64,000 nucleotides of DNA from a virus (IMGVR_UViG_2907202186_000003:74081-138080); one strand, 5' to 3'; positions 193-17,722 are shown, counted from the first letter of the stretch. The notes: generated by a model from the letters alone, not told the origin. Made by a program: numbers and translations.

Positions 193-260
193 GGGAATGC
201 CCCTTCCATTTCATAGTAGTAATTATATAATAACACCAATCTTCTCAAAAGTAAGTCATT

Positions 261-620: not shown

Positions 621-655
621 TTGTTCTTCCTTTCCCATAAAACTTGCATTTCATC

Positions 656-1400: not shown

Positions 1401-1446
1401 TCTATACCACTCCTTATTTTAGGATTCAAGTGAAATAGCCATTTGA

Positions 1447-1965
1447 TTAAGACTCCGCAGCAAGCAATCCAGCAACACGAGCCAGTTCCTCTTGACTGTG
1501 AACAGTGCCACCACTATTCATCTGTAAGTACCATTCAAGTACCTCTTTACGAGTCTGAAGGTTGTTAACATGAAAACTCAAACGAATCATCATTGGGATC
1601 TTGTCTTGAAATTCATTGTAGAAATGTCCAAATGCTTTAATTTGGTTTCTAATGAATTTCAAGCATGCTGTAAGGCGTTGCAGTCCATCGACACACACGA
1701 ACCACCCATCACCATTTCCCACAGTGTTCTGCCATTTAGTGTGATTGAAGTATATATCTAATCCTGAGACACCTTCACGCAACAAATGCTCGATATAAAG
1801 CTCTTGTTGTTGCTCAGTCCAGACCTGCCCTCTCTGAAAATCCGGTTCTAACTCTAATCCCATCTCTTCAATATAATCACCTATAGTGCTTTCAAGATAC
1901 CTTAGAGCTACATCAACAGAATAGTTATTGCACTGTATGTATGGTTTAATGCCCTGGAACTTCAT
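1447..1965 (-). CDS. stand-alone DUF262 (ParB/Srx-fold, GmrS-like) domain protein
   Basis: The PDFQRGQVW and VDGLQRLT motifs and the C-terminal MNSGGT are typical of DUF262. Confidence 0.8.
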   Translation of the reverse strand: MKFQGIKPYIQCNNYSVDVALRYLESTIGDYIEEMGLELEPDFQRGQVWTEQQQELYIEHLLREGVSGLDIYFNHTKWQNTVGNGDGWFVCVDGLQRLTACLKFIRNQIKAFGHFYNEFQDKIPMMIRLSFHVNNLQTRKEVLEWYLQMNSGGTVHSQEELARVAGLLAAES

Positions 1966-1985
1966 GTTTTAACCCCCTAAAACGA

Positions 1986-2186
1986 CTATCCATCTTGTTT
2001 ATCGATGATAAAGTAATCTAAATCCTCAAGAAACTCTTTAATTAAACGGATCTCAGCTTCTAAAATCAACATCGTAATGCTTTCATTAACTGATAAATCT
2101 TCTGTTCCCTTCTTTTTATTGTGGTAGGGTTTCAAAAGATTTTCTTTTCGTTCAAGTGATCTTTTATACTGTTCAATTAACTCCAT
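1986..2186 (-). CDS. hypothetical protein
   Basis: ORF with AAGGAGG RBS. Confidence 0.7.
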   Translation of the reverse strand: MELIEQYKRSLERKENLLKPYHNKKKGTEDLSVNESITMLILEAEIRLIKEFLEDLDYFIIDKQDG

Positions 2187-2228
2187 ATAATAATAGCCTC
2201 CTTAAATATAGGTAAAACAGTCATTTGA

Positions 2229-2588
2229 TCAAGAATCGATCCTATGTTTCTTGAAGTATCCATGAATCACTTCTTCGCTTGGATTATCAATACGTTCATC
2301 AGTACTCCATCTAGACCAACCATCAGCGCAATAATATGCGATATCTAAAAGGCTTTCAGGTTCTTTACCATAGTGTTGTTTGAAATCCTCTTTCAGTTCA
2401 CTCATTCCTTCTTCTGGATCTGAGCCAAAATATTCAGTAAAGCGAATAACTTTTCTTGATAGCAGCTTTTCTCCTTCTTTGAAGGTGTCTAAGAGTATTA
2501 CTTCAGCGTTCTCCTGATATTTTGAGTAATCCTCATTTATCATTTTTACATATCCTACTGTCTCTCGATCCCTATACTCTTTCCACAT
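2229..2588 (-). CDS. hypothetical protein
   Basis: ORF with AGGAG RBS; stop overlaps the boundary motif at 2212-2229. Confidence 0.7.
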   Translation of the reverse strand: MWKEYRDRETVGYVKMINEDYSKYQENAEVILLDTFKEGEKLLSRKVIRFTEYFGSDPEEGMSELKEDFKQHYGKEPESLLDIAYYCADGWSRWSTDERIDNPSEEVIHGYFKKHRIDS

Positions 2589-2607
2589 GATTTCATCTCC
2601 TATTTAC

Positions 2608-2817
2608 TCATAATTCTTCTAGTACAACTTTATATTTTTTCCCAGTAACATTGTTTGTGAAATGTGACAGTTCACTATAAATAAAGTTATTTCTTATATA
2701 GTCCTTATCTTTCTCTACTTCGGTTGCAAGAACCTGCATTAACTCATCTGTATTTTCAACAACATAAATACCCCAAACGTCGATGTGTTTTTCATGATAA
2801 GCATAAAATAATTTCAT
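2608..2817 (-). CDS. hypothetical protein
   Basis: Likely start MKLFYAY after the GAAGGAG RBS, which follows the motif at 2839. Confidence 0.6.
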   Translation of the reverse strand: MKLFYAYHEKHIDVWGIYVVENTDELMQVLATEVEKDKDYIRNNFIYSELSHFTNNVTGKKYKVVLEEL

Positions 2818-2869
2818 ATTTAGTATGCTCTCCTTCACATAAAATAGTTATTTGACCATGAATTATTTA

Positions 2870-3169
2870 TTAGAAATCTTTTCCTGCTTGTTTAAAATAA
2901 TTATCTAACTGCCGTTGTGCCTCTAGATGAGAAATAGGCGCCTTATTGATTCTTTCTAATTCAGTCTCAAGTTTCTTAACTTCATCGTCCGTGTTGTCTG
3001 GCTGTACTCCATTTTCACGCTGTGCTTTATTTAAAATTATCTGTTCTCTCAACCAAACCAATCTATTCAAGCAAAATCCATACCTATTTAGTTTTTCCTC
3101 AGTATCTCTTTTTTCAATCCATTCGTTACCGTTCCACTTATAGCCCTTTACGATCTTATCTTTCTTCAT
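2870..3169 (-). CDS. hypothetical protein
   Basis: ORF with GAGGTG RBS. Confidence 0.6.
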   Translation of the reverse strand: MKKDKIVKGYKWNGNEWIEKRDTEEKLNRYGFCLNRLVWLREQIILNKAQRENGVQPDNTDDEVKKLETELERINKAPISHLEAQRQLDNYFKQAGKDF

Positions 3170-3191
3170 GACCTTAACACCTCGTAGTTTT

Positions 3192-4184
3192 TTAAATAGC
3201 TTTTAGAACAATGTTTCCTGCATGATCAATAAATCCAGTGTCATCTTTTTTACTTGAAAATCTAACCAAGGCTAAACCTTCTTTGAATGAATCAATGTCT
3301 TCATACTGTGGCTCAACAATCCAATTACCAGACTTGTCAAGAACACCAAACGATTCTAAATACCTCTTCTTACCGTTTTTAACTGTGGCAAGCCCTTCAC
3401 TAAACCAAAAATTCTCGCTTGCAATATCTTTTACTATAGAATGCTCATACTTATCCATCAACCCAATAACTCTTCTATCTTGTGATCTCGTATTATTCAA
3501 AGGGCAATAAGAATACAAACCTTCTCCGGCATATCCCAAACTACTATAATCCTCTTTGAAAACTCTTTCTCCATTGCTATTGATTGCATAATATTTTGAT
3601 TGATCGAAATCATACACCACTGCTATACCATTATTAAAACCACTCGACACAGGATGATACTGATTTTTAATAACAACGGAACTGTTTATATTTATGAATC
3701 CAACCTTATAGTCTTGTTCAAATCTAATCAATCCGTCTTGAGGATGGCTTAAAGAATTAAAACTCGGCAACACAACCCATTCACCTTTTTTGTTTATCAT
3801 TCCATATCTATCATTTTTCTTCACAATCGAATATCCATTTCTAAAAGGACTGGCGGCTTCATATTTAGGCTCAATTATAAATTCACCACAATCATCTATA
3901 AAACCCGCTTTTCCGTCAATAACTACATTAACTAACCCTTCGGAGAATCCCCATGAAGCATATATCCCTTTATCAAATTTGCAGTCAATAATAATATCCC
4001 CATCTACGTTAATAAACCCCCATTTTTTAGAGGTATTTTGGAATGGGGCGTATCCCTCAGAGAAGTCTTCAGCGTAAGCAAACTTTGACTCAATTGCGAC
4101 TTCTCCATATTTATTAATGTATCCGTATTTTTTTTCATCTTGAATCAATGCCAAACCATTTGAAAAACCAGATTTATACTTCAC
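3192..4184 (-). CDS. WG-repeat (KWG-type) protein
   Basis: Repeated FSEGLA/F..G...V..GK.GFI...G..II units. Confidence 0.85.
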   Translation of the reverse strand: MKYKSGFSNGLALIQDEKKYGYINKYGEVAIESKFAYAEDFSEGYAPFQNTSKKWGFINVDGDIIIDCKFDKGIYASWGFSEGLVNVVIDGKAGFIDDCGEFIIEPKYEAASPFRNGYSIVKKNDRYGMINKKGEWVVLPSFNSLSHPQDGLIRFEQDYKVGFININSSVVIKNQYHPVSSGFNNGIAVVYDFDQSKYYAINSNGERVFKEDYSSLGYAGEGLYSYCPLNNTRSQDRRVIGLMDKYEHSIVKDIASENFWFSEGLATVKNGKKRYLESFGVLDKSGNWIVEPQYEDIDSFKEGLALVRFSSKKDDTGFIDHAGNIVLKAI

Positions 4185-4257
4185 ATTAATTCCTCCATAT
4201 CAAGATTGCTATGTATTTAGATTTCGCTAACCCCATGAAATAAACCTTTCACACACT

Positions 4258-4509
4258 CTAGTCCCTTGGATAGTTAACTTCCATTATGTCCATAAATGGC
4301 ACCTTAGTGATAACACCATCTTTCTTGATATGCACCTTTCCCGTCCGAGAGTCCATTTGATCGATTTGCCCCCTAACAGACTCTTCCCAACCCCACACGG
4401 TTAATACAATTTCTGATTCCTCTTGGTAGGCTTCGGTGAGTTGATTTCCTAACTCCTCAAGTACAAACTCATCTCTTGTTGGTCTCTTTGCTACCTTAGA
4501 TTTTGCCAT
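4258..4509 (-). CDS. YolD-like protein
   Basis: The pattern KRPTRDEFVLEELGNQLTEAY...LTVWG...G.ID.MD matches YolD-like SH3-fold proteins. Start taken at MAKSK after the AGGAGG RBS. Confidence 0.65.
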   Translation of the reverse strand: MAKSKVAKRPTRDEFVLEELGNQLTEAYQEESEIVLTVWGWEESVRGQIDQMDSRTGKVHIKKDGVITKVPFMDIMEVNYPRD

Positions 4510-4593
4510 CATTAATGCCCTCCTAGCTGTCGAATTCAGTACGCAAGAGTTGAAATGGCGACCTAAACGTTTCTGTTTGATCGCCAAGAAAAT

Positions 4594-4953
4594 TTAATTA
4601 TTATTCAATCTTTCTGTGATTTCTTTTATCTTTGAACGAGCAACATTGAGCTGTTCGCCATCTTTAAAAATAACCATTCCGTTAGCCTCATCAACATATT
4701 TCACTTGTTCAAGATTAATCATAAGATCTCTATCGGCCTGTAGAAACCCTTTTTCAGCGGAATAATACTCTGCCAAATCTTGAAACGTAGCAACCTGACT
4801 ATATCTGGCTCCGTTTGTGGTTGTATATACGGGTACTTTTTGACCCTTAATTATTTTTATTGAAACATGACTCACATCTTCAAGTTTGAAATCTTCAATC
4901 GATCCTGTATCATGATTATATCCGACCAATTCATTTGTTGTCATCGATGTCAC
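4594..4953 (-). CDS. stand-alone LytTR-domain protein
   Basis: FLQADRDLMINLEQV...VIFKDGEQLNVARSK resembles the LytTR FxRxHRSxxVN...lpVSR pattern. Confidence 0.7.
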   Translation of the reverse strand: MTSMTTNELVGYNHDTGSIEDFKLEDVSHVSIKIIKGQKVPVYTTTNGARYSQVATFQDLAEYYSAEKGFLQADRDLMINLEQVKYVDEANGMVIFKDGEQLNVARSKIKEITERLNNN

Positions 4954-5145
4954 CTCAAAGGTTATTATTGTATAATTTTACAATACAAAGTTACTTCAGA
5001 ACAGTACATTGTTTATCTATCAGTTATATAAGCATTGTATCACATAAATTTATATTTGTATATTTATTTTATTAATAATTTCAATTCAATCCAGTTGTGT
5101 CCCGATGTGCGAACAAACAATTTGCCTTTCTCAACTTTACCCCCT

Positions 5146-5325
5146 CTATACATATCTATATACGCTCCCAGTTCTACGGCTGTAAACCTCTACATAAGCT
5201 TTAAACTCGCTAGTGAGCTTGTACACTCTATCCATGATAATAAAGCTCATAGTCTCCTTGCAGCGTCCCAGTTGTGCAATGCTTTCTACCACTTGATTAT
5301 TTACCACAATATCATATGTATCCAT
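5146..5325 (-). CDS. small hypothetical protein
   Basis: Start MDTYDIVV after GGAGG. Confidence 0.6.
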   Translation of the reverse strand: MDTYDIVVNNQVVESIAQLGRCKETMSFIIMDRVYKLTSEFKAYVEVYSRRTGSVYRYV

Positions 5326-5377
5326 TATAAATACCTCCAATTAATATTTTTATTTTATTTTATTTGAAAGACTTATT

Positions 5378-5566
5378 TTATGCAGATTCATGTTTCGTCA
5401 TTTGGACACCATGGTAACTAACTTCTACAATATCAATTATCTCAGTTTCTTTATCATTAAACCAGAAATCATCTATCAGTTTTTTCGCATGTATTTCGTT
5501 GTTAGCTGTAACGATATGATACTTGGTATCCCCTAAAGCTTTAGTTTCAGCATAATAAATTCTCAT
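5378..5566 (-). CDS. small hypothetical protein
   Basis: ORF bounded by motifs at 5364 and 5581; GAGGAG RBS. Confidence 0.65.
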   Translation of the reverse strand: MRIYYAETKALGDTKYHIVTANNEIHAKKLIDDFWFNDKETEIIDIVEVSYHGVQMTKHESA

Positions 5567-5597
5567 TTTTTCAACTCCTCATGAAATACTTATTGTG

Positions 5598-5741
5598 TTA
5601 CCAGAATCTAACCTTATCATCCTCAATCGAGTAACCTTCAAGAATGAAGTTTATTCCTTCATTGGTATATGTAGCATCTTTATTTTCATGACCATGAGAA
5701 ATTAATTCTTCAAGTATCTCCTTTAACTCTATTAATTTCAT
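5598..5741 (-). CDS. small hypothetical protein (47 aa, not in ORF track)
   Basis: MKLIELKEILEELISHGHENKDATY...RFW*; AAGGAG RBS; bounded by motifs at 5581 and 5759. Confidence 0.6.
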   Translation of the reverse strand: MKLIELKEILEELISHGHENKDATYTNEGINFILEGYSIEDDKVRFW

Positions 5742-5872
5742 TGTCTTTTCAACTCCTTATAAATTACTTCTTTCATCCTATAACCCTGCCTAAAGTCCCA
5801 ATAAAATCTTCCAATATAACCAATTATGCTATATAGTTTATTTATCAAAATTAATAAGACTGGGGTAGACAT

Positions 5873-6373
5873 TTGATGAAAGCCATATTAATTATTGTTG
5901 TATTATTCATAGTTTGTGCACTGATACTCATTAAAATGAGGTCAAAAGGTCAAGAAAAAATCAACGATTATTCTAATAATCAATCAAAAGACCAAACCAG
6001 GAGTTTCTCCGGAGCTCTAAATGATGTAAGAAACGGAACATCTGAATTTGCTCCAGAAGCTATTAGGGGAATTGAGAAAATTAAGACTGTGCTTATGACT
6101 GATGAAGAAATTATTCACTCAGGTTATGGAAAAGATGGCTTTAAAAACGTAGTTTATGCTGTGACAAACAAACGATTTATAGCCTGTTATGTTGGAGTTA
6201 CTTCCGAACAACTCACTTCCATTAATTATAATAAGATTACAAATGTAGATATTAAAAACAAACTTAATTTATCATATGTTGTAATTCAAACAAGCGAGAA
6301 AGCAGTAGAGATTCTTGTCCAGAACAAACCAAGATCAGTTGAGTTTTTCAATTCAATAAATAGTTATACTTAA
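5873..6373 (+). CDS. membrane-anchored bacterial PH-domain protein
   Basis: N-terminal TM helix; AVTNKRFI and INYNKITNV are bPH-like motifs. Confidence 0.7.
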   Translation: MMKAILIIVVLFIVCALILIKMRSKGQEKINDYSNNQSKDQTRSFSGALNDVRNGTSEFAPEAIRGIEKIKTVLMTDEEIIHSGYGKDGFKNVVYAVTNKRFIACYVGVTSEQLTSINYNKITNVDIKNKLNLSYVVIQTSEKAVEILVQNKPRSVEFFNSINSYT

Positions 6374-6427
6374 TAATATTTTGGGTGAGGTCTTATTGAT
6401 CTCACCTTTCTTTATAAAAGAATCCTT

Positions 6428-6712
6428 TTATACAGACTTTCTCAATTGTCTTTGGCAAAACTGCATCGCCTCGAACAATGTTTCTGTGTCTGCTGTAACA
6501 TTCTGATAACCAAAGACTTTTTCATTCACATTGTTACTTGGTAAATCACTGTATACAAATAAAAAACCCCTTACAATCTTCCCCTTTCCTTCACCACAAT
6601 TGTCATCAGAAACAACCATGATATTATATTTACCAACAGGAATGATTAAACTTGCTTCAGCACCATCAGCATTACTTGCAATGATTCGGCCACCCAGTTT
6701 GATATTTTCCAT
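6428..6712 (-). CDS. hypothetical protein
   Basis: GAGGAG RBS; bounded by motifs at 6414 and 6728. Confidence 0.65.
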   Translation of the reverse strand: MENIKLGGRIIASNADGAEASLIIPVGKYNIMVVSDDNCGEGKGKIVRGFLFVYSDLPSNNVNEKVFGYQNVTADTETLFEAMQFCQRQLRKSV

Positions 6713-6785
6713 TGAACTAATCTCCTCATAAAATATTCATATTTAAACTTCAATTATCATAGCATCTTCGTTCTGCGACACTTTA

Positions 6786-7085
6786 CTATTTAAGCGAACA
6801 TCTCTTATGCTCCATGCTATAAATAACAATTTGATCGCCTGTCATTGACCTTGATCTATATCGAATGCCTAAACATTTAACTTTTCTTCCATCCTGAGTT
6901 TGACTCAATTTGTTGTTTTGATACTCTTGTTTTGTAAGGTTTTCATTGCATTTAGGGCAAAGCAATTCAAACGCTTCTTCAACATGCTCTGCCATGTAGT
7001 CATCTTCTAATTGTTCCTCATGGGTTCTTAGACTAAATTCTGTAAAGTTTGCTTTCGCATACAGAATGTCATTCAAAATCACCAC
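6786..7085 (-). CDS. hypothetical protein (CxxC)
   Basis: AGGAGG RBS; CPKC. Confidence 0.55.
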   Translation of the reverse strand: MVILNDILYAKANFTEFSLRTHEEQLEDDYMAEHVEEAFELLCPKCNENLTKQEYQNNKLSQTQDGRKVKCLGIRYRSRSMTGDQIVIYSMEHKRCSLK

Positions 7086-7143
7086 CTCCTGTTTTGCGGT
7101 ATTTTGTCTACTGTACTTAATAAATCCTCATAAAATAATCTTT

Positions 7144-7356
7144 TTATTCAAACTTACTATCTCTAATTAAGACATAAATAAAATCCCTTACTTCTGTATC
7201 ATCCCATCCCCACTCATCTGCCAGATCTTTTATCCTATCTGGAATCAAGTTAATAATGGCAGTTATTTGTGCTTCATCGGGAGCAATATTGTTAATATCA
7301 ATATAGCTGCTTCGAATTTGATCTTTTAATTCCCAAGTTCCATCCATATTATTCAA
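7144..7356 (-). CDS. hypothetical protein
   Basis: ORF bounded by motifs at 7130 and 7370. Confidence 0.6.
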   Translation of the reverse strand: MNNMDGTWELKDQIRSSYIDINNIAPDEAQITAIINLIPDRIKDLADEWGWDDTEVRDFIYVLIRDSKFE

Positions 7357-7387
7357 TCCTCATTTCTACGTAAAATATTCATTTTAA

Positions 7388-7462
7388 TGCCAACTACAGG
7401 AATTGAACCTGTCATCGCACCAATTTATGCTTTTGTAGTCATCACCAAAGACTCTAGCTGGC
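7388..7462 (-). tRNA. degenerate tRNA / tRNA-like element (anticodon arm poorly paired; possible CAT)
   Basis: Acceptor stem GCCAGCT/AGTTGGC plus discriminator A; D-arm AGTC-TTTGGTGAT-GACT; T-arm ACAGG-TTCAATT-CCTGT. Confidence 0.65.
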
Positions 7463-7481
7463 TATCTAATTATTACTTTAA

Positions 7482-7706
7482 TTAGTTCTTACTCTGTTCA
7501 CGGAAGAATAATTGCTCATATGCATCCGTTACTGCATCAACTGGATTATCGTATTGTTTTGATATCGCGCGTTCACGACTCTCAATCTGTTCCAGCATAC
7601 ACTTATACAAACCAACAGTATGCAAATAGAGAATGTAATCATCTCCCTGAATATTTACAATGGAGACTTGAACCTTATTGTTGTTGATTTCACTCATCGA
7701 TAGCAT
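7482..7706 (-). CDS. hypothetical protein
   Basis: GGAGGTGA RBS. Confidence 0.65.
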   Translation of the reverse strand: MLSMSEINNNKVQVSIVNIQGDDYILYLHTVGLYKCMLEQIESRERAISKQYDNPVDAVTDAYEQLFFREQSKN

Positions 7707-7742
7707 ATCCTCACCTCCTCTCAGTGGTTATGGATGAAAGGA

Positions 7743-7976
7743 TTATTTAATTACAAATTCTATTTCCTTATATTCAAACTTATCACCATGTCTTGAATCA
7801 TAGAACTTTTCCCAAGCTAGCAGATCCTCTTCTTTTTCTGTTTCACTAAATACCATTGATTCAATTAAGTTGTCAGTATATTCACCGACTTTTCCAATCC
7901 ATACATTTCCTTCTACACTCTGGATGCTGCACCACTTAATAAATTTATCTCCAACTTTGATTACATATCTGCTCAC
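7743..7976 (-). CDS. hypothetical protein
   Basis: Bounded by motifs at 7734 and 7992; GGAGTGA RBS. Confidence 0.65.
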   Translation of the reverse strand: MSRYVIKVGDKFIKWCSIQSVEGNVWIGKVGEYTDNLIESMVFSETEKEEDLLAWEKFYDSRHGDKFEYKEIEFVIK

Positions 7977-8008
7977 TATGTATCACTCCCCATGAAAGGA
8001 TCATTTCA

Positions 8009-8377
8009 TCAATACTTCAATGCTTTTCCCTTGCCTATGGTCAATTTCCATGCAAGTAAACATCCTTCTTCAAGTTCTTGTTTGTCAGTAAAACACATAT
8101 CACACTGCCCGTTTCTAAAAATCTCGCACTGTCTCTCAACAATGTTATGAAGAGTTTTTCTTTTGATAATTCTAGCAGCAGTTCCCTTAATATATCGTTC
8201 CTCGGTGTAAACTGTTATGTATTCTGGATCATTTTGCAGCTCTAAAGTACTTCTTTGTGGTTTAACTGTTTTTTCAAACCGTGCGGCGAACATGTAAACA
8301 CGATTATTAAAGTCATCATTTACGTACACAGCCCTCATTGGAGCAGTTACATTTGTATCTTCCTCAATCTGATACAC
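8009..8377 (-). CDS. hypothetical protein (5' end possibly frameshifted)
   Basis: ORF present; the RBS-supported ATG at 8426 is out of frame by one base. Confidence 0.55.
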   Translation of the reverse strand: MYQIEEDTNVTAPMRAVYVNDDFNNRVYMFAARFEKTVKPQRSTLELQNDPEYITVYTEERYIKGTAARIIKRKTLHNIVERQCEIFRNGQCDMCFTDKQELEEGCLLAWKLTIGKGKALKY

Positions 8378-8436
8378 TTTATTAAGTGTCAGATTGTCTG
8401 TGGCTGCTGTGCATTTTCCCCACCATTTATCTCCTT

Positions 8437-8676
8437 TTAATTGTTCTCTCTCCCATCTTTGTCAATTTTCGCTCCAGCTCTAATATAAACTTCCAAGTTT
8501 CTCGGAATCTTAAACTGATTACGATCAAATATTGGCATTTGTTCTTCCGGAATAGAGCCACCAGACACATGAAATACTTCTCCATTCCATTGTCTAACGA
8601 AACCCCAGAATCCATAATAAGGTGATTCTTTATCAATAATTTCAATCAGTTTACCTATTGAATTTTCAGGCTTCAT
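8437..8676 (-). CDS. hypothetical protein
   Basis: GAGGAG RBS following the motif at 8693. Confidence 0.65.
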   Translation of the reverse strand: MKPENSIGKLIEIIDKESPYYGFWGFVRQWNGEVFHVSGGSIPEEQMPIFDRNQFKIPRNLEVYIRAGAKIDKDGRENN

Positions 8677-8777
8677 TTAAAAACAACTCCTCATGAAAAG
8701 ATCCTATGATTTAGTCTTGATCCAGCGGATCAATACGGTTTTCATAGCAGTAAGATTCTCAATTCCTTAGTAAAAGA

Positions 8778-9023: not shown

Positions 9024-9060
9024 AAAAAATCACTCCTCATTAAAATATAGTTTCATCAAC

Positions 9061-9228: not shown

Positions 9229-9321
9229 TTCAATATCACCTCTTTGTTTTGTTAGTTAAATTATACCATATGATTTTATATTATGTCTATATTTATTTTG
9301 TTAAATATAAAGGAATAAACA

Positions 9322-10172: not shown

Positions 10173-10441
10173 AGTGTCACGCCTATTGGATTATACCAGT
10201 CACACATTTCTGACTCATCAGTGATTTCTTCGTACTCATCATAAACATCCCACACCAGAATATATTCGTTATTTTCTGCATCAACAGCGGTTGCTTTGTA
10301 GTGGGGGCGTTCGCCGGAAACTCCATCAATATATGGGTCCTGTGTGGTCTTCAAGGTTTTCCCTTCAAAATCAATCACCGTCGAGTTAAACTCGTTCAGA
10401 TCGCTAAAAGTTTTCACTAAATTTTTCCTCCTTGACATCAT
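10163..10441 (-). CDS. small acidic hypothetical protein (candidate anti-CRISPR); true start probably internal
   Basis: D/E-rich C-terminus WDVYDEYEEITDESEMCDW; lies next to the solitary CRISPR repeat and the HTH gene. Confidence 0.55.
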   Translation of the reverse strand: MMSRRKNLVKTFSDLNEFNSTVIDFEGKTLKTTQDPYIDGVSGERPHYKATAVDAENNEYILVWDVYDEYEEITDESEMCDWYNPIGVTLVK

Positions 10442-10460
10442 ATTTAATATGATTTAATTT
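10432..10460 (+). promoter_or_regulatory. sigma-A-like promoter with palindromic operator for the solitary repeat
   Basis: TTGACA at 10432-10437; TG-A-TTTAAT or TAATTT as -10; perfect palindrome ATCATATT-T-AATATGAT at 10437-10453. Confidence 0.65.
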
Positions 10461-10472
10461 AAAAATGTAAGT

Positions 10473-10504
10473 GTCGCACCCCGTGCGAGTGCGTGGATTG
10501 AAAT
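10473..10504 (+). CRISPR. solitary type I-C-like CRISPR repeat (candidate Racr / crRNA-like RNA)
   Basis: GTCGCACCCCGTGCGAGTGCGTGGATTGAAAT (32 nt) fits the I-C repeat pattern GTCGCAC...GTGCGTGGATTGAAAT. No second repeat and no cas genes were seen. Confidence 0.88.
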
Positions 10505-10526
10505 ATTCTTATAGTATTTCAGCAGG

Positions 10527-10551
10527 AGGCCCTTTACGGGGCCTTTTGTGT
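10527..10551 (+). terminator. intrinsic terminator after the solitary repeat
   Basis: AGGCCC-TTTACG-GGGCCT followed by TTTGTGT. Confidence 0.7.
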
Positions 10552-10577
10552 TACCATCCCGATGATGCCCTCTTAAT

Positions 10578-10979
10578 TTAAAATAGTTGCGCAATCACGA
10601 GAGCGTCCTTTATTACAATCTCTCCGTGATCAGGATCGTCATGGCGTCCCAGGCGCTTACTGGCGATTATGTAACAATGATCGGTACCAAAAATTTGGTC
10701 GCGCGCCTTTTCAGCTGCGAAGGAAGAATATTCGTAAGTCTGGCTGATTGACATGTCCCAGGCGGATGTACCGTTAAGAAGTTCCATCTCCTCGTATTCC
10801 TCTGTCCCGTATTTAGGGAACTCCCTTTCATCTTCGCGATCAGCGTTATGGCGGCTGTATTCGCATTCCTCACCGATCGCGCGTTCCTTGTTTTCAAAAC
10901 GAAGTCCGATAAAATAGAATTCATTCTCATTGGCGACGTAGATTTCTTTAGCCTCCGCGTACATTTCTGCGACTGTCAT
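10578..10979 (-). CDS. acidic hypothetical protein, possible ADP-ribosyltransferase-like fold (candidate anti-defence)
   Basis: Start MTVAEM after GAAGGAGG; IGLR / GTSAW / DHGEIVI recall the R-S-E ART motifs. Confidence 0.55.
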   Translation of the reverse strand: MTVAEMYAEAKEIYVANENEFYFIGLRFENKERAIGEECEYSRHNADREDEREFPKYGTEEYEEMELLNGTSAWDMSISQTYEYSSFAAEKARDQIFGTDHCYIIASKRLGRHDDPDHGEIVIKDALVIAQLF

Positions 10980-11028
10980 CTTAATTCCTCCTTCATATAT
11001 TTTTCCGTGATTCCTTGTTGTTGGTTTT

Positions 11029-11061
11029 ATTATATCACACAAGGTTGTGCTACACAACCTT
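11029..11061 (-). promoter_or_regulatory. sigma-A promoter with palindromic operator
   Basis: Minus strand TTGTGT-17 bp-TATAAT with extended TG; perfect inverted repeat AAGGTTGTG-CTA-CACAACCTT at 11041-11061. Confidence 0.7.
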
Positions 11062-11192
11062 TTCTTGAAAATATTATAATTTCCATACACAAATAACTCC
11101 AAGCAACAAAACTAACTCGCTTGGAGTTTGATAAAATTAATCTTTCATTAAGAAAGACAACCCCGAAAATAAGATTGTCTTTGCAATATAAA

Positions 11193-11378
11193 TTATTCAG
11201 TTTCAGTCCAGTACATGATTTTCACATGATTTGGAGTGGTTTTTTCTAACCTCACAATCTGTTCTTTTACATAATCATGTACTTCTCTCTCTTCTCCATT
11301 TGGAACATCGTAAATGCTTGCTCTTTTGTTGTGCTGTACTCTGTCAACAAATAGAATGTAATCAACTTCGAGTGTCAT
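11193..11378 (-). CDS. small hypothetical protein
   Basis: GAGGGG RBS. Confidence 0.55.
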   Translation of the reverse strand: MTLEVDYILFVDRVQHNKRASIYDVPNGEEREVHDYVKEQIVRLEKTTPNHVKIMYWTETE

Positions 11379-11478
11379 GATTGCCAGCCCCTCTATATGT
11401 AATTATTTTCCTGTTATATCTTTACGCTTGTCGGAGTCAAAGTTTACTAGCCGAGAGATTGTTATCAAAAAAATAAAG

Positions 11479-11973
11479 TTAGGAGTTACTTTTTAGTTTT
11501 ACCTTATATTTTTCAGCTAGTTCTTTTACTTTATCCTGATATTCTCGCATCATCTTCCTTGCCTCTGAAAGCTTCTCATTCGCTTCAGTAATAGTCTTTA
11601 TATCCTGTTCTTCTAGAGCATAAGCGATTGTTGTTAAAGCTGAATTCTGACGATTTAATCCGTCTATATAAATATTATGTACTTCTCGTAACTCTTTTGA
11701 TTCAATTTTAACACTTTCAACTTTTCCAGTGAACTCGTTATAACCAGGTATTACTTTGTCCACCAAAACGTTGTAGGTTGTTTCGTCATCCGTAAAATTT
11801 GCTCCTGTTACACTTTCATAGGTATTAACTAACTCCTGTTCTTCAGTAAACAGAGGAACCATTTGTTCGTTAATATAAGACAGTAATTCTTCTGTTACCG
11901 GGTCAGTTTTGCTACACCCCATTAGAACATTAAAGAGCAACATAGTGCTGATAAGAATTATTAACTTTTTCAA
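11479..11973 (-). CDS. lipoprotein, helical
   Basis: Signal peptide with lipobox LMGC. Confidence 0.75.
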   Translation of the reverse strand: MKKLIILISTMLLFNVLMGCSKTDPVTEELLSYINEQMVPLFTEEQELVNTYESVTGANFTDDETTYNVLVDKVIPGYNEFTGKVESVKIESKELREVHNIYIDGLNRQNSALTTIAYALEEQDIKTITEANEKLSEARKMMREYQDKVKELAEKYKVKLKSNS

Positions 11974-12109
11974 AAGAAAACCTCCTAGTCTTAAATACCT
12001 TTTATCTTGTAGATTATAATGGAAAATAGTTCAAAAGCAATAGGGTATTTGGAACTAATTACATCTAATTCATTTCACAACTCTTCTTATTTTTCATGAA
12101 ATAACTGTT

Positions 12110-12295
12110 TTATCCAACTTTATCTTCTATTACCTGACAGACTGTGTGTGTAAGTACTAAAAATGTTAATGTAAATAATAAAAACGGAAAACTATTGTGC
12201 CATCCTTCTTGAAATACACACTGTGTATCTAATACTCCAAAAACAAAACAAGCGATACCAAATAATACAAGTCTACATTTAGATAATTTCTCCAT
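12110..12295 (-). CDS. small membrane protein
   Basis: Start MEKLSK after AAGGAG; two hydrophobic segments. Confidence 0.5.
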   Translation of the reverse strand: MEKLSKCRLVLFGIACFVFGVLDTQCVFQEGWHNSFPFLLFTLTFLVLTHTVCQVIEDKVG

Positions 12296-12355
12296 TGTCC
12301 ATATCTCCTTTTTGTAAAATTCTGCTTTTAACAGCTTCCTAATTAATAACTCCAA

Positions 12356-12658
12356 CTAATTTTGATCAAAAATCATGCAGTACTCACAATCATCAAAAAT
12401 GGCCTTTTCAATTTCTTTATTGGTTGCATCCTCCCAAACAGTTACCTTCCCGTTATATGTACCAATTGGCCTGACACTAATTGTATATTCGACTTCCTTG
12501 ATTTTTCTTTGTTCGCTGTACGCTTTCTCTGCTGCTATAAGATTCTCAATAGCTTCATCAAACTCAGCTCTAGTTCGATTATTGTTTGTTGTTCCTGCAA
12601 TACATGCCTTTTGATTAACAATGGATTGCAATTTCTCAATATCTTTTCTTGTGATCAT
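12356..12658 (-). CDS. hypothetical protein
   Basis: GAGGTGA RBS following the motif at 12677. Confidence 0.65.
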   Translation of the reverse strand: MITRKDIEKLQSIVNQKACIAGTTNNNRTRAEFDEAIENLIAAEKAYSEQRKIKEVEYTISVRPIGTYNGKVTVWEDATNKEIEKAIFDDCEYCMIFDQN

Positions 12659-12690
12659 TTCTCTTTCTCACCTCTTATAAAATACTGTTT

Positions 12691-12978
12691 TTATTGGAAG
12701 TACATTTCCTCGATTTTACGTTTAAATCGCGCTAAATTATTTTTTGCTTGTTGGTATGATCCATTCAAACCCTTCAACTCCAACGAATCAATTTGAGCAC
12801 CAAATTGATTAAACACCGTTACCGATAAATCAAAATCTCCAAAAAACTTATGATTTTCATTAAATATATTTTCTTTCCCTACTATTTCTGCCTGAGCTTT
12901 ATAGTTGTTATTGCTTAAATACTCCAGCGAACAATTTTTTATATCAAGTTTCTCAGTTGCCCATTCCATCTTTACCAC
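12691..12978 (-). CDS. hypothetical protein
   Basis: Bounded by motifs at 12677 and 12984. Confidence 0.65.
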   Translation of the reverse strand: MVKMEWATEKLDIKNCSLEYLSNNNYKAQAEIVGKENIFNENHKFFGDFDLSVTVFNQFGAQIDSLELKGLNGSYQQAKNNLARFKRKIEEMYFQ

Positions 12979-12997
12979 TCCTTATAAAATCGTTGTT

Positions 12998-13279
12998 TCA
13001 CTTAGATTCCTTAAATACCTGGTCATAATTTCCTTCAACATCTACTAAATGCAAATATGAATAAATCTGTGCAACAATATCTTTAATCTCTTTTCTTTGT
13101 CGTAGAACAAAGTTACGGTACAATTCATCTTTTAATAGTTCTTCTCCCACCAGACCGGAGAGCATCTCAATTTTACTTGTGATATCTGCAATCTCATTTC
13201 CCATTGCCTTCACTTTATTTCTTGCATATCCTGTAAAGTGGATCTCTTTTTCAATGCTTTCCAATTGATCTCGATTCAT
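12998..13279 (-). CDS. hypothetical protein
   Basis: Bounded by motifs at 12984 and 13309. Confidence 0.65.
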   Translation of the reverse strand: MNRDQLESIEKEIHFTGYARNKVKAMGNEIADITSKIEMLSGLVGEELLKDELYRNFVLRQRKEIKDIVAQIYSYLHLVDVEGNYDQVFKESK

Positions 13280-13682
13280 TTAGTTAACTCCTTATATTAT
13301 GTATTTTTATTAAATAACCGTTTTAATAATGATAAGCCCCCATAAACCGATGCACAGTGAATACAAGATTGCATTTTCAAACGTTAGATGCTTCATAATT
13401 CTCATGTGATTTCCTCCACCTAATCTATAAAGCGTTGCTGTTCTTTATCATGTGAAAGTAACCTTTCATACAGAGAATTCATATCGTTCACATATAAATC
13501 GAGTAAAAAATTTAAATAGATAAACTCCTCAATGGATGCAATTTGCTGGTCTATTGCATCCATGATCTCATCAGGTAAAAGCGCAGGAAGCAATATACTG
13601 GAGGTTTCCTGCGCTTACCTGATAATTAACGTATGTACATTTTATATCGCTCTCTCTATGCATTGTTGTGGTCTCATAAACT

Positions 13683-13925
13683 CTACCAAAAACATGATCC
13701 AGTATTATTATATGTTACCTGATGAATTCCTTTTGTTTTAAGGAAAGCCTCCAATTTACTATAAAATTCATTTGAGGGATTAAGAACGAAACTGCTAACA
13801 AACGCATTATCAGTTATGCCTATATCAACTTTAAATCCGTTTCGTCTTAGCTTAATTATTGATCCCATGTTTTTAAGCGTTTGATTAAATTCATTTATAT
13901 ATTCTTCAGTAATTTCACTCATCAA
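13683..13925 (-). CDS. hypothetical protein
   Basis: AAGGAGTGG RBS. Confidence 0.6.
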   Translation of the reverse strand: MMSEITEEYINEFNQTLKNMGSIIKLRRNGFKVDIGITDNAFVSSFVLNPSNEFYSKLEAFLKTKGIHQVTYNNTGSCFW

Positions 13926-14010
13926 ACTTCCACTCCTTTTTAATATGAATCGATTTTCAGGATACCATCTCTTAAAGTTGTAGTAAAGACGAATAGGAGA
14001 ATTATATCCC

Positions 14011-14511
14011 CTATTCTAATCCGCACTTATCACAAAATTCATCCCATGCCTTATCATATTTCTTACTTCCCGATCTACCTCCAAACTCTTTAGACCACAT
14101 GTCTGCTACAATTTGAAATTGTCTATCAGTTAGGTCTTCGATTTCTTTCATGAATAACTCTTGTGCTATGCTGTAGCAAAATCCCTTTTCCTGTATTCTT
14201 ATTTCGATACCACTTGGTGGATAATATCGCTTATTGTCTTTATCCATCAGATAATCGATAAGCCATCCGTTTTTCTCATAATAGTACTCGCGCGTTTTCT
14301 GTTCTTCTGTTTCTCTTGCCTCAATTTGTGCGTGTCTGTCTGCCTTAAACTTTATGTATTCGTCAACATTTCTTTTGTTTCCCATTTCCCAAACTTTGAT
14401 GCCTGACACAATCTGCACACATTCGCTACCATATGGCTTACCTTGATACTCGAAAATGTTCTTGATACCTTGACCACATCTCGTACAATTAGAAATGATT
14501 CCTGTTTCCAT
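14011..14511 (-). CDS. hypothetical protein with N-terminal Zn-finger-like motif
   Basis: CTRCG...YGSECV; GGAGG RBS. Confidence 0.7.
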   Translation of the reverse strand: METGIISNCTRCGQGIKNIFEYQGKPYGSECVQIVSGIKVWEMGNKRNVDEYIKFKADRHAQIEARETEEQKTREYYYEKNGWLIDYLMDKDNKRYYPPSGIEIRIQEKGFCYSIAQELFMKEIEDLTDRQFQIVADMWSKEFGGRSGSKKYDKAWDEFCDKCGLE

Positions 14512-14638
14512 TTTTGACCGCCTCCGTGTTTTAACTTATAACTAATTATAACACGGGTTATGCATTTACACAATAATATGTTTATATTTATTTTATTGTT
14601 TTTACTTAAAATAAGCATTTCATCGTGTTTTATAAACC

Positions 14639-14854
14639 TTATGTATCACTGTTGGAATTCTCTATTAGAATTTCACAAGCACTATCAAATACAATTTCTT
14701 TCGACAACTGATATCGCTCTTTATTCTTCTCATAATGCACTACAAACATAGGATAAAGTTGCAATTCACTACAACCTTCTTTCATGAGTCTCATCTTTAA
14801 TACTTTTAGATGAGTTCTTAAATGCTCAACAGTTTTTATCTCCAAGTTAACCAC
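14639..14854 (-). CDS. hypothetical protein
   Basis: ORF downstream-bounded by the motif at 14606. Confidence 0.5.
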   Translation of the reverse strand: MVNLEIKTVEHLRTHLKVLKMRLMKEGCSELQLYPMFVVHYEKNKERYQLSKEIVFDSACEILIENSNSDT

Positions 14855-14871
14855 ACCTTATTACATTTATT

Positions 14872-15093
14872 TTATTTACTGCTATAACCAGAAGAACGAA
14901 TTATGCTTTCAATCGAATTTATATTGTTTCTCTCTAAAATAATGTTTCTTACCCAATTCGGCCTATTTAATTTATTTTTATAAAAGGCTTTTTGGAATAC
15001 CTTTATGTTTCCTTCGCCCGTAAATATGGCAATTTTACAAGGTGTATTTTGCATTGCTTTTATTGTTCCTTCATAAATCTTAAATAATTTCAT
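14872..15093 (-). CDS. hypothetical protein
   Basis: AGGAG RBS. Confidence 0.6.
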   Translation of the reverse strand: MKLFKIYEGTIKAMQNTPCKIAIFTGEGNIKVFQKAFYKNKLNRPNWVRNIILERNNINSIESIIRSSGYSSK

Positions 15094-15117
15094 TTTTATT
15101 TCTCCTATAATTAATAA

Positions 15118-15264
15118 CTACCATTCTCTACCGTTTCTGACCGCTTCTAAATTTTCTTTTGCGTGGTTAATGTATTCTTCTTTTCGAGAATCATTTCCAT
15201 AAGCACTAACTACCTTTTCCAATTGTTTTTCATAATACTTAATTAGCTCTTCTCTTGTTTTCAT
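15118..15264 (-). CDS. small hypothetical protein (48 aa, not in ORF track)
   Basis: MKTREELIKYYEKQLEKVV...GREW*; GAGGGGG RBS. Confidence 0.55.
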   Translation of the reverse strand: MKTREELIKYYEKQLEKVVSAYGNDSRKEEYINHAKENLEAVRNGREW

Positions 15265-15322
15265 TTTTTCATTCCCCCTCTAATTTGTTGGTGAAACAAG
15301 CGTTACTTAGATACTTTTTACT

Positions 15323-15562
15323 CTAGATCCCTTCAACCTCAATTACTCTATCAATCATTTCTTCCAGGTCCAAGACAGACTTTTCATTAACTTTAATTTG
15401 ATTTTTATATACTTCAATTGTGCATTTTTCTGTAAGTATTGTTGCTGTAGGTGCAATTACAAATGTTGTACTGTCTCCTGCTACTTCGTGACCATAACCA
15501 TATGTATTCAATTTCTCGCTGATTGAGTTGACCAGTTTTTCAATGCTCTTCATCGGTATCAC
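15323..15562 (-). CDS. hypothetical protein
   Basis: ORF with RBS. Confidence 0.6.
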   Translation of the reverse strand: MIPMKSIEKLVNSISEKLNTYGYGHEVAGDSTTFVIAPTATILTEKCTIEVYKNQIKVNEKSVLDLEEMIDRVIEVEGI

Positions 15563-15765
15563 TTCCTTATAATTTGTATAATTACTTTATTAAATGTTAT
15601 ATCTAAGTGGATAGATTTTTTCCTTCCTGTGGCAATATACATAAATAGTATTATTGTGAAATCCTATTGTTTCCATTTTTGTCCCAGCGATATGAAAAAT
15701 GAAACCTTTCTCCGTTATGTTTTTCATCTTTTGTCCCCTCCAGTTTAGTTGAAACAAGAATTTTA

Positions 15766-16077
15766 TCAATTGTCGATCATTTGCAGATTATTTCTTGTAA
15801 TAAAAGCTTTAACTTCTGAAACACCCCAAGCTTCTTTTCCCCAATCTTTTATATTTTCACTTTCAAAATTCTCTACTCTATTAAATTCAACCGAAACTCC
15901 TTCTTCAATGAGTTTATCAAGGCACGAAGAATGTCTGTATGTCTCCATTTGATAAAATTCTTTATGCTCATCTTCGATAAGTAGACCTTTTTTTTCTATA
16001 AAGCAGAGTTTGATTTTTTTCTGCTCTAATTCTGATAATACATCTTTAAAATCCACAATAATCTTTTTATTTTTCAT
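15766..16077 (-). CDS. hypothetical protein
   Basis: Bounded by motifs at 15749 and 16098; GGAGG RBS. Confidence 0.65.
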   Translation of the reverse strand: MKNKKIIVDFKDVLSELEQKKIKLCFIEKKGLLIEDEHKEFYQMETYRHSSCLDKLIEEGVSVEFNRVENFESENIKDWGKEAWGVSEVKAFITRNNLQMIDN

Positions 16078-16138
16078 TTCTTATTCCTCCGTGTTCTATG
16101 AAATCACTCTTTCACTTACTGTTTTAGAAGGACACATA

Positions 16139-16618
16139 CTATTTTATATGTGTCCACAACTTACCCGAGTTCTTACTTTGACATTTCTTGCAAACATGTG
16201 CACCATCAGGTGGTAAATCTAATGGATCACCTTGAAGCAAATTAGGTCTATCAAGATTGTAACTTTGACAAGATGGATATCTATTATTCTCGATTTCAAA
16301 TCCAATTTTATGCCACGTTCCTGTTTTTGATTGCATCCACTTTTTAAGTCCAGCAGATTCCTCAATTGCTTTACTTGTATTTTTATTTTCTTTTTTTGCT
16401 TCTATATTTTGACGTTTGAGTAAATCTTGTTTCGCTCTGTTCAGATCACGCTGCAGTATGCCAATTTCAACTGCTGCTTTTCTTTCTTCAGAACCTGCAG
16501 GAAATGTTGCCCAGCACTCTAAAGGGTCAGCTCCTAAATTTTTTAGAGTTTCAACTTGTACTAAGATTTTCGATTCATATCTTTCAACCTTTTTAACGGC
16601 TGCCTCAAGTTTGTTCAC
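16139..16618 (-). CDS. hypothetical protein (coiled coil + C-terminal H/C motif)
   Basis: GGAGGG RBS; WH...C...CKKC. Confidence 0.6.
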   Translation of the reverse strand: MNKLEAAVKKVERYESKILVQVETLKNLGADPLECWATFPAGSEERKAAVEIGILQRDLNRAKQDLLKRQNIEAKKENKNTSKAIEESAGLKKWMQSKTGTWHKIGFEIENNRYPSCQSYNLDRPNLLQGDPLDLPPDGAHVCKKCQSKNSGKLWTHIK

Positions 16619-16738
16619 TTTGTCAACCCTCCATAATCGGATAAAATGAGTATTTCTTTTAACGATTTAGTTATATTATTATTATATTTACTTTATAATA
16701 AAATGTCAAGCCTTTGTTTTCTTTTTTTAAAGCGAAAT

Positions 16739-17206
16739 TCAAGTAAAATATTGATAATCAAATTCAATATTTAGCTCAATTTGCTCTATTGTCGGCTCCC
16801 AATATATTAAATTACCTTGATCTTTATAATAAGCTACGTTGTTTTTTATAAAGAATGTCTTATTCGAATAAAATCCACAATTTCTCATATCCTCCAATAA
16901 ATATTTTAAATCGTTACAGTCATCATTGAACAATAAACCATTTATATAGTTATAGTATTTAGCAAGATTATAAATTAATATCTCGTCTAAGCAGAATTCT
17001 AGATTTGGATGAAGTAAAACCTTATTCAAATTTATAAAAATTGTATCCTCTTCAAAAATCACATAACTATATCTATATTTCATTTTATTAGGAATGAATA
17101 TTTTTCCTTTATATTCAAGACTACATATCTTCTTTGCGAGAAATTTAGTCTTTCTTTCTAACATTGGAATGGAATTATCATCTTTCGAGAGTAATGTTTG
17201 AATCAA
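16739..17206 (-). CDS. hypothetical protein, possibly degenerate SprT-like
   Basis: LDEILIYNLAKYYNY.NG..F.D resembles the SprT HExxH region with the His residues lost. Confidence 0.45.
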   Translation of the reverse strand: MIQTLLSKDDNSIPMLERKTKFLAKKICSLEYKGKIFIPNKMKYRYSYVIFEEDTIFINLNKVLLHPNLEFCLDEILIYNLAKYYNYINGLLFNDDCNDLKYLLEDMRNCGFYSNKTFFIKNNVAYYKDQGNLIYWEPTIEQIELNIEFDYQYFT

Positions 17207-17371
17207 AATATTCTCTCCTTTTATTAAAGATTTTACTTAGTGTTCAAATATACAATGTTACTAATTGTACCATTGTATATTTGTCTTGCCACCTAACCGC
17301 TCAATGTCAGCGGTTAACGCTCTAGGCTTAAGGCTCAATCCCGATATGTCGGGAACCGCCTAGACGGTTTA

Positions 17372-17644
17372 TTATACATTCTGTTTTAGTAACAGATAGT
17401 TATAACTTGCTAATTCATTAAGGTCAATTCCCTTTGATTCAATTAAATTTTTGATCTGTTCTTTAAAGGTATTCAGTCCAGTGATTCGGTCTTCTTTATT
17501 TGCAATTTCTTCGGTGTTTTGGATTTCTTGTATCGCAAAGCTAATATCGATCATAAATCTATATAATTCTACTGGAGTACCTTTTAATTTAACCTCTAAT
17601 TCAATATTAGTTTCAAAATCATTTTTCATTGTAATTACCTCCAT
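17372..17644 (-). CDS. hypothetical protein
   Basis: GGAGG RBS before the internal MKNDF. Confidence 0.6.
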   Translation of the reverse strand: MEVITMKNDFETNIELEVKLKGTPVELYRFMIDISFAIQEIQNTEEIANKEDRITGLNTFKEQIKNLIESKGIDLNELASYNYLLLKQNV

Positions 17645-17722
17645 TTTTTAGTCATATCATACCACTAATATGCAACATCAGTAATAATGAAATGAGGATT
17701 TCAATCTGATTTAATTCAAGTA

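Follow-up and report, generated by a model that had tools for sequence, protein, structure and literature searches.

Palindromic junction sites with private six-base centres between the accessory genes of a large SPbeta-like Paenibacillus prophage

The prophage region

The stretch of DNA analysed here, referred to as the window, comprises 64,000 nucleotides (nt) of IMGVR_UViG_2907202186_000003 (positions 74081-138080) and corresponds to positions 238803-302802 of contig C11 in a 6.6-Mb genome, designated G000. The host element is a large SPbeta-like prophage, and the feature of interest is an 18-bp palindrome that separates nearly every one of its small accessory genes from the next. These genes form a minus-strand series of many small open reading frames (ORFs) running from the first position of the window to ∼26.7 kb. 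The terminase encoded in the window is ∼46% identical to that of SPbeta-group phages, and an ORF of 856 amino acids (aa) matches the RNA-dependent RNA polymerase (RdRP) family, which we take to be the match that the SPbeta polymerase YonO would give. A megablast of the window against phage records returned no match, and a sensitive blastn returned a single match of 190 bp, to Paenibacillus larvae phages. Searches of 60 related genomes with the window DNA recovered single-gene fragments only, and the sole match in IMG/VR to the ORF at 15766-16077 was a second prophage, that of genome G070.

Anatomy and distribution of the junction sites

Read on the plus strand, the motif is RTRAAA-N6-TTTYAY, a palindrome of 6-6-6 architecture in which two arms enclose six central bases. 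On the coding (minus) strand each site fills the short gap between the stop codon of one gene and the Shine-Dalgarno sequence of the next. The stop codon of the upstream gene lies inside the left arm at 21 sites, as A[TGA]AA or A[TAA]AA, and ends on the first base of that arm at 11 others, giving 32 stops within or abutting the arm, and the Shine-Dalgarno sequence usually begins 0-10 nt past the right arm. Each unit between two centres is thus supplied with a ribosome-binding site (RBS) and a stop codon of its own, which leaves the six central bases as the sole untranslated, unassigned segment of the joint. The two arms vary independently, and the centre is asymmetric.

Sites were called with a weight matrix built from the arms only, restricted to intergenic positions and to scores of at least 10. 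The matrix finds 28-29 intergenic copies in the window, from position 16 to 17704. These belong to a larger set of ∼85 copies between 171 kb and 257 kb of contig C11, compared with ∼0.2 per 10 kb elsewhere in the genome. The initial annotation had listed 16 sites; all of their coordinates and 6-bp spacers are correct, and the local spacer families that it described are real. Its list omitted the intervening sites at 6414, 9039, 11131, 12096-14606 and 16098, which the arm matrix supplies along with those at 16, 637, 943 and 4235.

Conservation of the centres in related prophages

Pattern searching, in 116 genomes of the genus and in five chosen ones, located related prophages in genomes G070, G088 and G097. 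G000 and G070 share 35 collinear centres at no more than one mismatch (permutation mean 14.3, maximum 19), although G070 has homologues for only 46 of the 200 ORFs of G000, the distances between anchors differ, and even the core genes show just 40–65% protein identity. Identity at these anchors reaches 95% in the centre, compared with 82% in the arms (the level of any two sites) and 30–38% in the flanks (the random level); the comparison is partly circular because anchors were picked by their centres. One joint illustrates the point, occurring as GTGAAA-TAGCCA-TTTGAT and as ATCAAA-TAGCCA-TTTCAT. This example and the excess of collinear anchors over the null still show that the centre outlasts the arms. 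Between G000 and G097 there are 41 exact collinear centres (null 10.4, maximum 15). About 20 of these anchors fall inside the array range of the window, where the two prophages match at the DNA level in one gene only. Five junctions beside orthologous genes were usable for comparison, and at four of them the centres have 0–1 difference, too small a set for a firm estimate.

All sites from 16 to 17704 lie on the minus strand. At the left end, TCTACA (16-33) is collinear in G070 and G097, and CTTGCA (637-654) is common to G070, G088, G097 and another genome, G001; the homology of both G001 and G097 to G000 ends at the edge of the latter site, position 654. CATGCC (943-960), two mismatches from CTTGCA, is found in G000 and in none of the G070, G088 and G097 series. 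TAGCCA (1430-1447) is common to these three relatives with an identical centre and differing arms, CAGTCA (2212-2229) is present in G088 and G097 and missing from G070, and TAGTTA (2839-2856) is again in G088 and G097. TAAACC (4235-4252) follows, in G070 and G097, and then GACTTA (5364-5381), in G097, and TACTTC (5759-5776), in G088 and G097. Between these last two G000 alone has TACTTA (5581-5598), one mismatch from each neighbour, while in G097 no site intervenes between GACTTA and TACTTC, which lie 308 bp from each other.

The next group is framed by four centres present in both G088 and G097: GAATCC (6414-6431), TAATCT (7130-7147), TATTCA (7370-7387) and GGATCA (7992-8009), the last with perfect ATGAAA/TTTCAT arms. 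Two sites interspersed among them are absent from G097 and G088 (contig C18 in the first case) and occur in G000 only, namely a site with a degenerate arm at 6728-6745, which repeats the TATTCA centre of 7370, and GGATTA (7734-7751), one mismatch from 7992. G097 in turn has TAATCC beside GAATCC and TAATCT. The order of these series is repeated in G088, as CTTGCA>TAGCCA>CAGTCA>TAGTTA>TCGTTG and GAATCC>TAATCT>TATTCA>GGATCA. AGATCC (8693-8710) and ATATAG (9039-9056) are confined to G000.

Further to the right, TTAATC (11131-11148) and TACTGT (12677-12694) are found in G097, TAACTG (12096-12113) in G070 and G097, and TCGTTG (12984-13001) and TAAGCA (14606-14623) in G088 and G097; for TTCTGC (12314-12331), G097 has TCCTGC at the matching place. 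CAAGCG (15291-15308) has a weak right arm and lies two mismatches from CAAGAA (15749-15766). The CAAGAA joint is present in G070, where the adjoining gene has 83% protein identity and the other flank is unrelated. TCACTC (16098-16115) and TGAGTA (16641-16658) are in G097, and TGAGGA (17687-17704), one mismatch from 16641, is absent from G097 and seen in G000 only. Several of the G000-only sites (943, 5581, 7734 and 17687 among them) are copies of a conserved neighbour at one or two mismatches, the relatives showing the conserved ones only, and 6728 with its repeated centre belongs with them. This is the pattern expected if joints are copied when genes are added, or if genes are lost by recombination between related joints.

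Two further observations concern the arrangement of these elements. Two small genes of G097 sit at addresses other than those of their homologues in G000, one of them in the slot next door: the genes at G097:C1:4336373-4336609 and 4338347-4338556 correspond to window positions 8437-8676 and 7482-7706, with 56% and 41% protein identity. In G001 (G001:C1:5108979-5110813), GTATTA and then CTTGCA occur within 1 kb, compared with 32 kb apart in G000, pointing to a large deletion, or to a reduced element, with the join at junction sites.

The same palindrome in the SPbeta family

In SPbeta, the sequence [stop]ATAAAA-N6-TTTTAW precedes the RBS at ∼25 junctions of the early clusters. The palindrome is not annotated in the SPbeta record, and no prior description of it was found in the SPbeta literature searched, which did not extend to the 1999 SPbeta genome paper. 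The region from 81.5 to 101.5 kb of SPbeta was compared with Goe13, Goe11, SPbetaL8 and phi3T, and the starts and ends of homology blocks coincide exactly with site edges. At SPbeta 86073 (centre GATGCA), for example, Goe13 has another gene on the left and SPbetaL8 another gene on the right, and the centre AGACTG occurs with three left and three right contexts. Breakpoints fall at 9 of 10 site-bearing junctions versus 8 of 27 junctions devoid of a site (Fisher p=0.002). The ordered series TTAACT, ATTTAC, TGTAAG, GATGCA, GTAAAA, AGACTG, GATAGT, TATTTA, ACGATA, GTAATT, TGATAA is the same in all five phages, with varying genes between the centres.

Neighbouring centres resemble each other yet are never identical

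Adjacent sites tend to have similar centres, as the initial annotation had stated. When the order of its 16 sites is permuted, the observed mean Hamming distance between adjacent spacers is 2.13 compared with 3.39 (p=1e-5), and the similarity also exceeds permuted order in the 28-29 objectively called sites (2.85 versus 3.83-3.87, p=1e-5). It is replicated in 57 sites of the same prophage upstream of the window, which the initial annotation did not cover (3.82 versus 4.33, z=-3.7, p=2e-4), and for all 85 sites taken together z=-5.6. The signal is confined to the 6-bp centre (z=-5.2), and neighbour autocorrelation is absent from the arms and from flanks out to 40 nt. It decays with lag (z=-5.6 at lag 1, z ∼ -2 at lags 2-3, none from lag 4), and it is present in pairs less than 1 kb apart and not in pairs more than 1 kb apart. 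Comparison with centres whose letters were shuffled internally gives z=-6.7, meaning that the likeness is positional. Outside G000 the effect is seen in G070 (z=-2.1 to -2.6), G097 (z=-3.5) and G001 (z=-1.9, n=17), whose addresses overlap with those of G000, so that these are not independent cases.

Other sources of such likeness were considered. Regional base composition is ruled out (neighbour composition distance z=-1.0), as is tandem gene duplication, with one paralogous near-pair among 197 ORFs. Neighbours are related in direct orientation only; relatedness to the reverse complement, as in kissing loops, gives z=-0.07. At one place the likeness reaches beyond the centre: ∼30 nt on the RBS side are alike between 5566-5597 and 5744-5775 (and also 12969-13000), at 75–81% identity and unlike other pairs, which looks like ordinary local duplication or a shared 5' leader.

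None of the adjacent pairs is identical, and the excess sits at 2–3 mismatches, with 20% of adjacent pairs at distance 2 compared with 6% of all pairs. Avoidance is also apparent over the genome as a whole. Among 96 centres of G000 there is no identical pair, where 2.4 are expected from position-specific composition, and pairs at no more than one mismatch are depleted (21 versus 38.8 expected, P=0.001). The same depletion is seen in G070 (14 versus 25.4 expected, P=0.01).

Candidate recombinase-type proteins

Three ORFs of the window are tyrosine-recombinase-like. The candidate for the acting enzyme is a YomM-type gene (45290-46306, plus strand; PF00589, 41.5 bits), which sits in the structural gene block and has a junction site on either side, at 45253 and 46312. 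Its product is 61% identical to SPbeta YomM and so far more conserved than the terminase (46%). By eye, the alignment shows the box I arginine, the histidine and the tyrosine to be present, with HxxK instead of HxxR in box II, and the lysine replaces the second catalytic arginine in the YomM of both phages. The second ORF, of YopP type (25633-26673, minus strand; PF00589, 62 bits; 28% identity to SPbeta YopP), is a candidate site binder. Its best solved relative is XerD, and a match to IntI4 is weak and partial (E=7e-4). In the alignment to XerD the histidine and arginine of box II are changed to N and F, and the protein is probably non-catalytic. The third such ORF lies at 62897-64000.

The YopP-type gene belongs to the head of the early operon (22768-26673, minus strand), where three overlapping genes encode this protein, a RecD2-like superfamily 1 (SF1) helicase of 752 aa and an HTH_36 protein. 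In SPbeta the place after YopP is taken by the ParB-like YopQ (PMC8612738).

Other features of the window

Positions 4250-4560 and 4854-4969 are 86% identical to the host chromosome (G000:C1:1466885-1467346), and the former also matches ∼25 other genomes of the genus at 66–80%. This has the look of an accessory cassette copied from a conserved host gene. About 35 nt at 10465-10512 match, at 88–97%, the repeats of long tandem arrays in G033, G040, G014 and G059; the arrays have a spacing of ∼67 bp and look like arrays of clustered regularly interspaced short palindromic repeats (CRISPR).

A second repeat of the prophage, TATATTTATTTTATT (plus strand), occurs at window positions 5059, 9288, 14583, 18061, 18716, 19781 and others. 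There are 17 copies at no more than two mismatches, versus 2.3 expected, nearly all on one strand, and they lie in the larger intergenic gaps together with promoter-like TATAAT boxes. This repeat is likely the operator of the phage master repressor, a functional counterpart of the SPbeta element SPBRE.

Interpretation of the junction sites

We propose that the 18-bp palindromes are joints at which SPbeta-like phages exchange single genes, a reading to which we give about an even chance. The six bases between the arms would be the crossover or overlap segment, and since exchange would need matching centres, each joint would keep a private six-base address. Such an address could outlive the flanking genes and even the arms: an arm would move together with the gene to which it belongs, whereas the overlap must match, so that arms would drift and centres stay. 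With ∼100 places that each have their own six-base word, the simplest reader of a word is another DNA that carries it, and the favoured mechanism is a protein-mediated exchange of tyrosine-recombinase type at matching centres. We infer that addresses are duplicated on insertion, a new joint being a copy of an existing one made when a gene with one site inserts at a matching site; recombination between related neighbouring joints may be an alternative route to the same outcome. A pair of identical direct copies would cause loss of the intervening gene, and only drifted pairs, similar but distinct, would persist and later be conserved.

In its fullest form the proposal describes a natural cassette-exchange scaffold extending from Bacillus to Paenibacillus, with ∼100 heterospecific 18-bp sites bearing 6-bp barcode cores. 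A phage protein of tyrosine-recombinase type, for which the YomM family is the best-conserved candidate, would swap single genes between co-infecting relatives wherever cores match. Addresses would be born by duplication of the core as a circular gene unit integrates, and would then have to diverge, since a gene lying between identical direct cores would be excised. This combination as a whole is put forward tentatively, as a possibility that will more probably fail in some part than hold in all.

The initial annotation had already invoked integration of circular cassettes that end up flanked by two related sites. This is partly supported, in that the sites are boundaries of gene cassettes and the behaviour of the centre is that of a recombination overlap or address: conserved centres are collinear around replaced genes, homology ends at the sites, the centres are kept distinct, and G000 has its own copies of conserved neighbours at one or two mismatches (5581, 7734, 17687 and 943). 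Other findings give it no support. No cassette lies between identical centres, no single hybrid site conserved on both flanks was seen among the relatives compared, none of them above 90% identity, the neighbour similarity is not a trace of recent integration, and SPbeta lacks the effect.

Several observations weigh against gene exchange at matching centres, or against the duplication of addresses that goes with it. G070, G088 and G097 share addresses with G000 and hence are not independent replicates, and the centres of SPbeta are devoid of neighbour similarity (z ∼0). No identical adjacent pair occurs in any genome examined, and no fresh insertion has been caught. Lineage-specific joints, expected to be more neighbour-like than shared ones, are not: the neighbour distance in G000 is 2.62 for shared joints versus 3.13 for lineage-specific ones (random 3.70), and pairs of anchors shared by G000 and G070 are already similar (3.27, p=4e-4). 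Shared joints being at least as neighbour-like as specific ones, the similarity is mostly ancient and was later frozen by conservation of the centres, so that its origin is not datable. The spacer families are therefore conserved features of the address scaffold and not recent events in this strain. The RBS-side flank common to 5581 and 5759 fits ordinary local duplication better. Homologous genes are sometimes found at different addresses in G097, which makes exchange not strictly position-for-position and means that gene units also move between addresses. Finally, both tyrosine-recombinase-like proteins considered as candidates have non-canonical active sites, and no result ties either to the sites.

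The serious rival is exchange driven by homology, with the sites acting as short shared sequence, on ∼12-18 bp of identity, for relaxed homologous recombination, single-strand annealing or copy-choice template switching. In this view, the end of a nascent strand, made up of an arm and a centre, would re-anneal on a neighbouring or co-infecting site, and occasional short conversion tracts between nearby palindromes would make centres alike. The uninterrupted identity at anchors is often ∼12 bp (AAA, centre, TTT), enough for microhomology processes, and SPbeta is annotated with a Sak4-like annealing protein, a RecJ-like exonuclease and a ligase. The decay of the neighbour effect with distance also counts in its favour, as does the junction after yoqG in the comparison of phi3T with SPbeta, where the left arm is kept and the centre AGACTG is that of a site two genes away, which fits a crossover in the arm. 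However, homology-driven exchange has no need of strictly two-fold symmetric arms, which point to a dimeric protein. Microhomology in the arms would scramble the order and make hybrid centres, whereas the series are collinear with exact centres in four species, and conversion should sometimes yield identical neighbours, of which none are seen. We consider this explanation unlikely, though the best of the alternatives.

Roles as docking sites or as RNA elements fit the data less well. In the former, more improbable than homology-driven exchange, a non-catalytic DNA-binding protein, for example the YopP-type one, would bind sites with regional classes of centre in the manner of MrpR at SPBRE, and the accessory regions would thereby be silenced, insulated or organised, with exchange as a by-product. 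The restriction of ∼85 sites to the prophage, when the remaining genome has 0.2 per 10 kb, agrees with this, as do the palindromic arms with independently varying half-sites, the YopP homologue lacking its box II residues, and the precedent of MrpR, a repressor of recombinase fold that lacks catalysis (PMC10516654). However, a protein reading the arms only leaves unexplained why centres are better conserved than arms across species, and docking accounts neither for the mutual avoidance of centres within a genome nor for likeness of neighbours in direct orientation only. In SPbeta, sequencing after chromatin affinity purification (ChAP-seq) of MrpR gave only 10 peaks, all at SPBRE (PMC10516654), and in the present phage the promoter-linked repeat TATATTTATTTTATT fits an operator role better.

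A small hairpin in the early polycistronic mRNA, serving as an RNA element for translational coupling, processing or stability and having a loop that just happens to be alike in neighbouring genes, would agree with the fixed stop-to-RBS position on the transcribed strand and with the 6-bp stems of some copies (z down to -3.5), but is very improbable, as the hairpins are weak (0 to -4.2 kcal/mol across ten copies, several of which do not fold), covariation of arm positions 3 and 16 is absent (G..C 16, G..U 26, A..C 16, A..U 13; p=0.23), and the loop is conserved by position while both flanking genes are replaced, the opposite of a gene-linked RNA signal. A selected RNA hairpin or intrinsic terminator was likewise rejected, given the weak folding and the A.C mismatches that 16 of 71 sites give on the sense strand.

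Significance

Large temperate phages replace their accessory genes, including anti-defence genes, and yet keep their operons unbroken, and how they do so is an open question. Botstein is said to have put forward the idea of 'linkers' for modular exchange, of which we know few clean examples. The design of the joints described here, in which the stop codon and RBS come with whatever gene unit is placed there, goes together with a private address that is kept in four species while nearly all of the cargo has changed. The relatedness of neighbouring addresses and the avoidance of identical ones provide two quantitative, testable signatures of the growth and stability of the scaffold. As SPbeta and phi3T are genetically tractable, the model is directly testable and, if true, would provide a natural set of orthogonal exchange sites.

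Comparison with known systems

Simple tyrosine-recombinase sites such as dif, lox and FRT have inverted arms, usually of 11–13 bp, around an asymmetric overlap of 6–8 bp. The junction sites share this architecture, with inverted arms around a 6-bp asymmetric centre, and their arms are shorter, at ∼6 bp. Their conserved and mutually distinct centres lend indirect support, from sequence only, to binding and cleavage by a candidate recombinase that would need identical overlaps.

Among natural systems, pdif sites have arms of 11 bp that are bound by the host proteins XerC and XerD. The pdif/dif modules of Acinetobacter plasmids (XerC/XerD) are similar to the present array in having many short sites with inverted arms and a 6-bp centre; the sites occur within accessory regions, on either side of single adaptive genes or of small modules that turn up in varied contexts (PMC6449649). 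The junction sites differ in their ∼6-bp arms, in being phage-specific with ∼85-130 sites per element, in being built into the stop/RBS spacing of an operon, and in that each centre is a private, ordered address conserved across species.

With heterospecific lox or FRT sites, different overlaps do not cross-react, and a cassette between two different sites can be exchanged only for another that has the same two sites at its ends. This is matched here by the collinear private centres and by the scarcity of near-identical ones. The lox and FRT variants are an engineered system whose arms measure 13 bp and whose enzyme is known; the junction sites would be a natural counterpart with ∼100 specificities and candidate enzymes only.

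Integron attC sites are imperfect palindromes of 57–141 bp with paired R and L boxes and a conserved 7-bp core. Integron arrays resemble the present one in consisting mostly of promoterless single genes in one orientation with imperfect palindromes between them, and an inserted circular cassette would end up between two related sites. The integron features that such an array would call for, attC, IntI and attI, are absent. The junction sites are 18 bp long with no longer conserved structure and with flanks that share no sequence, which rejects attC identity. None of the three tyrosine-recombinase-like ORFs is of IntI type and beside the array, and the sites extend over ∼85 kb and not downstream of one attI, which rejects an arrangement of IntI, attI and Pc promoter. 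Unlike integron cassettes, the genes carry their own RBS and the centres are unique.

In T4-type phages, PeSL cassettes likewise have repeated intergenic motifs that mark the insertion, deletion and replacement of genes in hyperplastic regions, and exchange between nearby copies can release circles (PMC2839356, PMC4122927). PeSLs are composite promoter-terminator units acting by ordinary homologous recombination (PMC2839356, PMC4122927), whereas the junction sites are 18 bp long, fold weakly and have unique centres that keep gene order. Membership in that class was rejected, there being no promoter hexamers in the unit and the hairpins being AU-rich, at 0 to -4.2 kcal/mol, with no U-tract.

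SPBRE, the operator of MrpR/YopR, is likewise a repeated element of SPbeta-like phages linked to a protein of tyrosine-recombinase fold (PMC10516654). The two are not the same element: SPBRE, as read from the ten SPbeta promoters that PMC10516654 names, differs in sequence and has a centre that is conserved, and whereas SPBRE is found at ∼10 promoters, the junction sites lie inside operons, between stop codon and RBS. SPbeta itself carries both, having the junction palindrome ATAAAA-N6-TTTTAW besides SPBRE.

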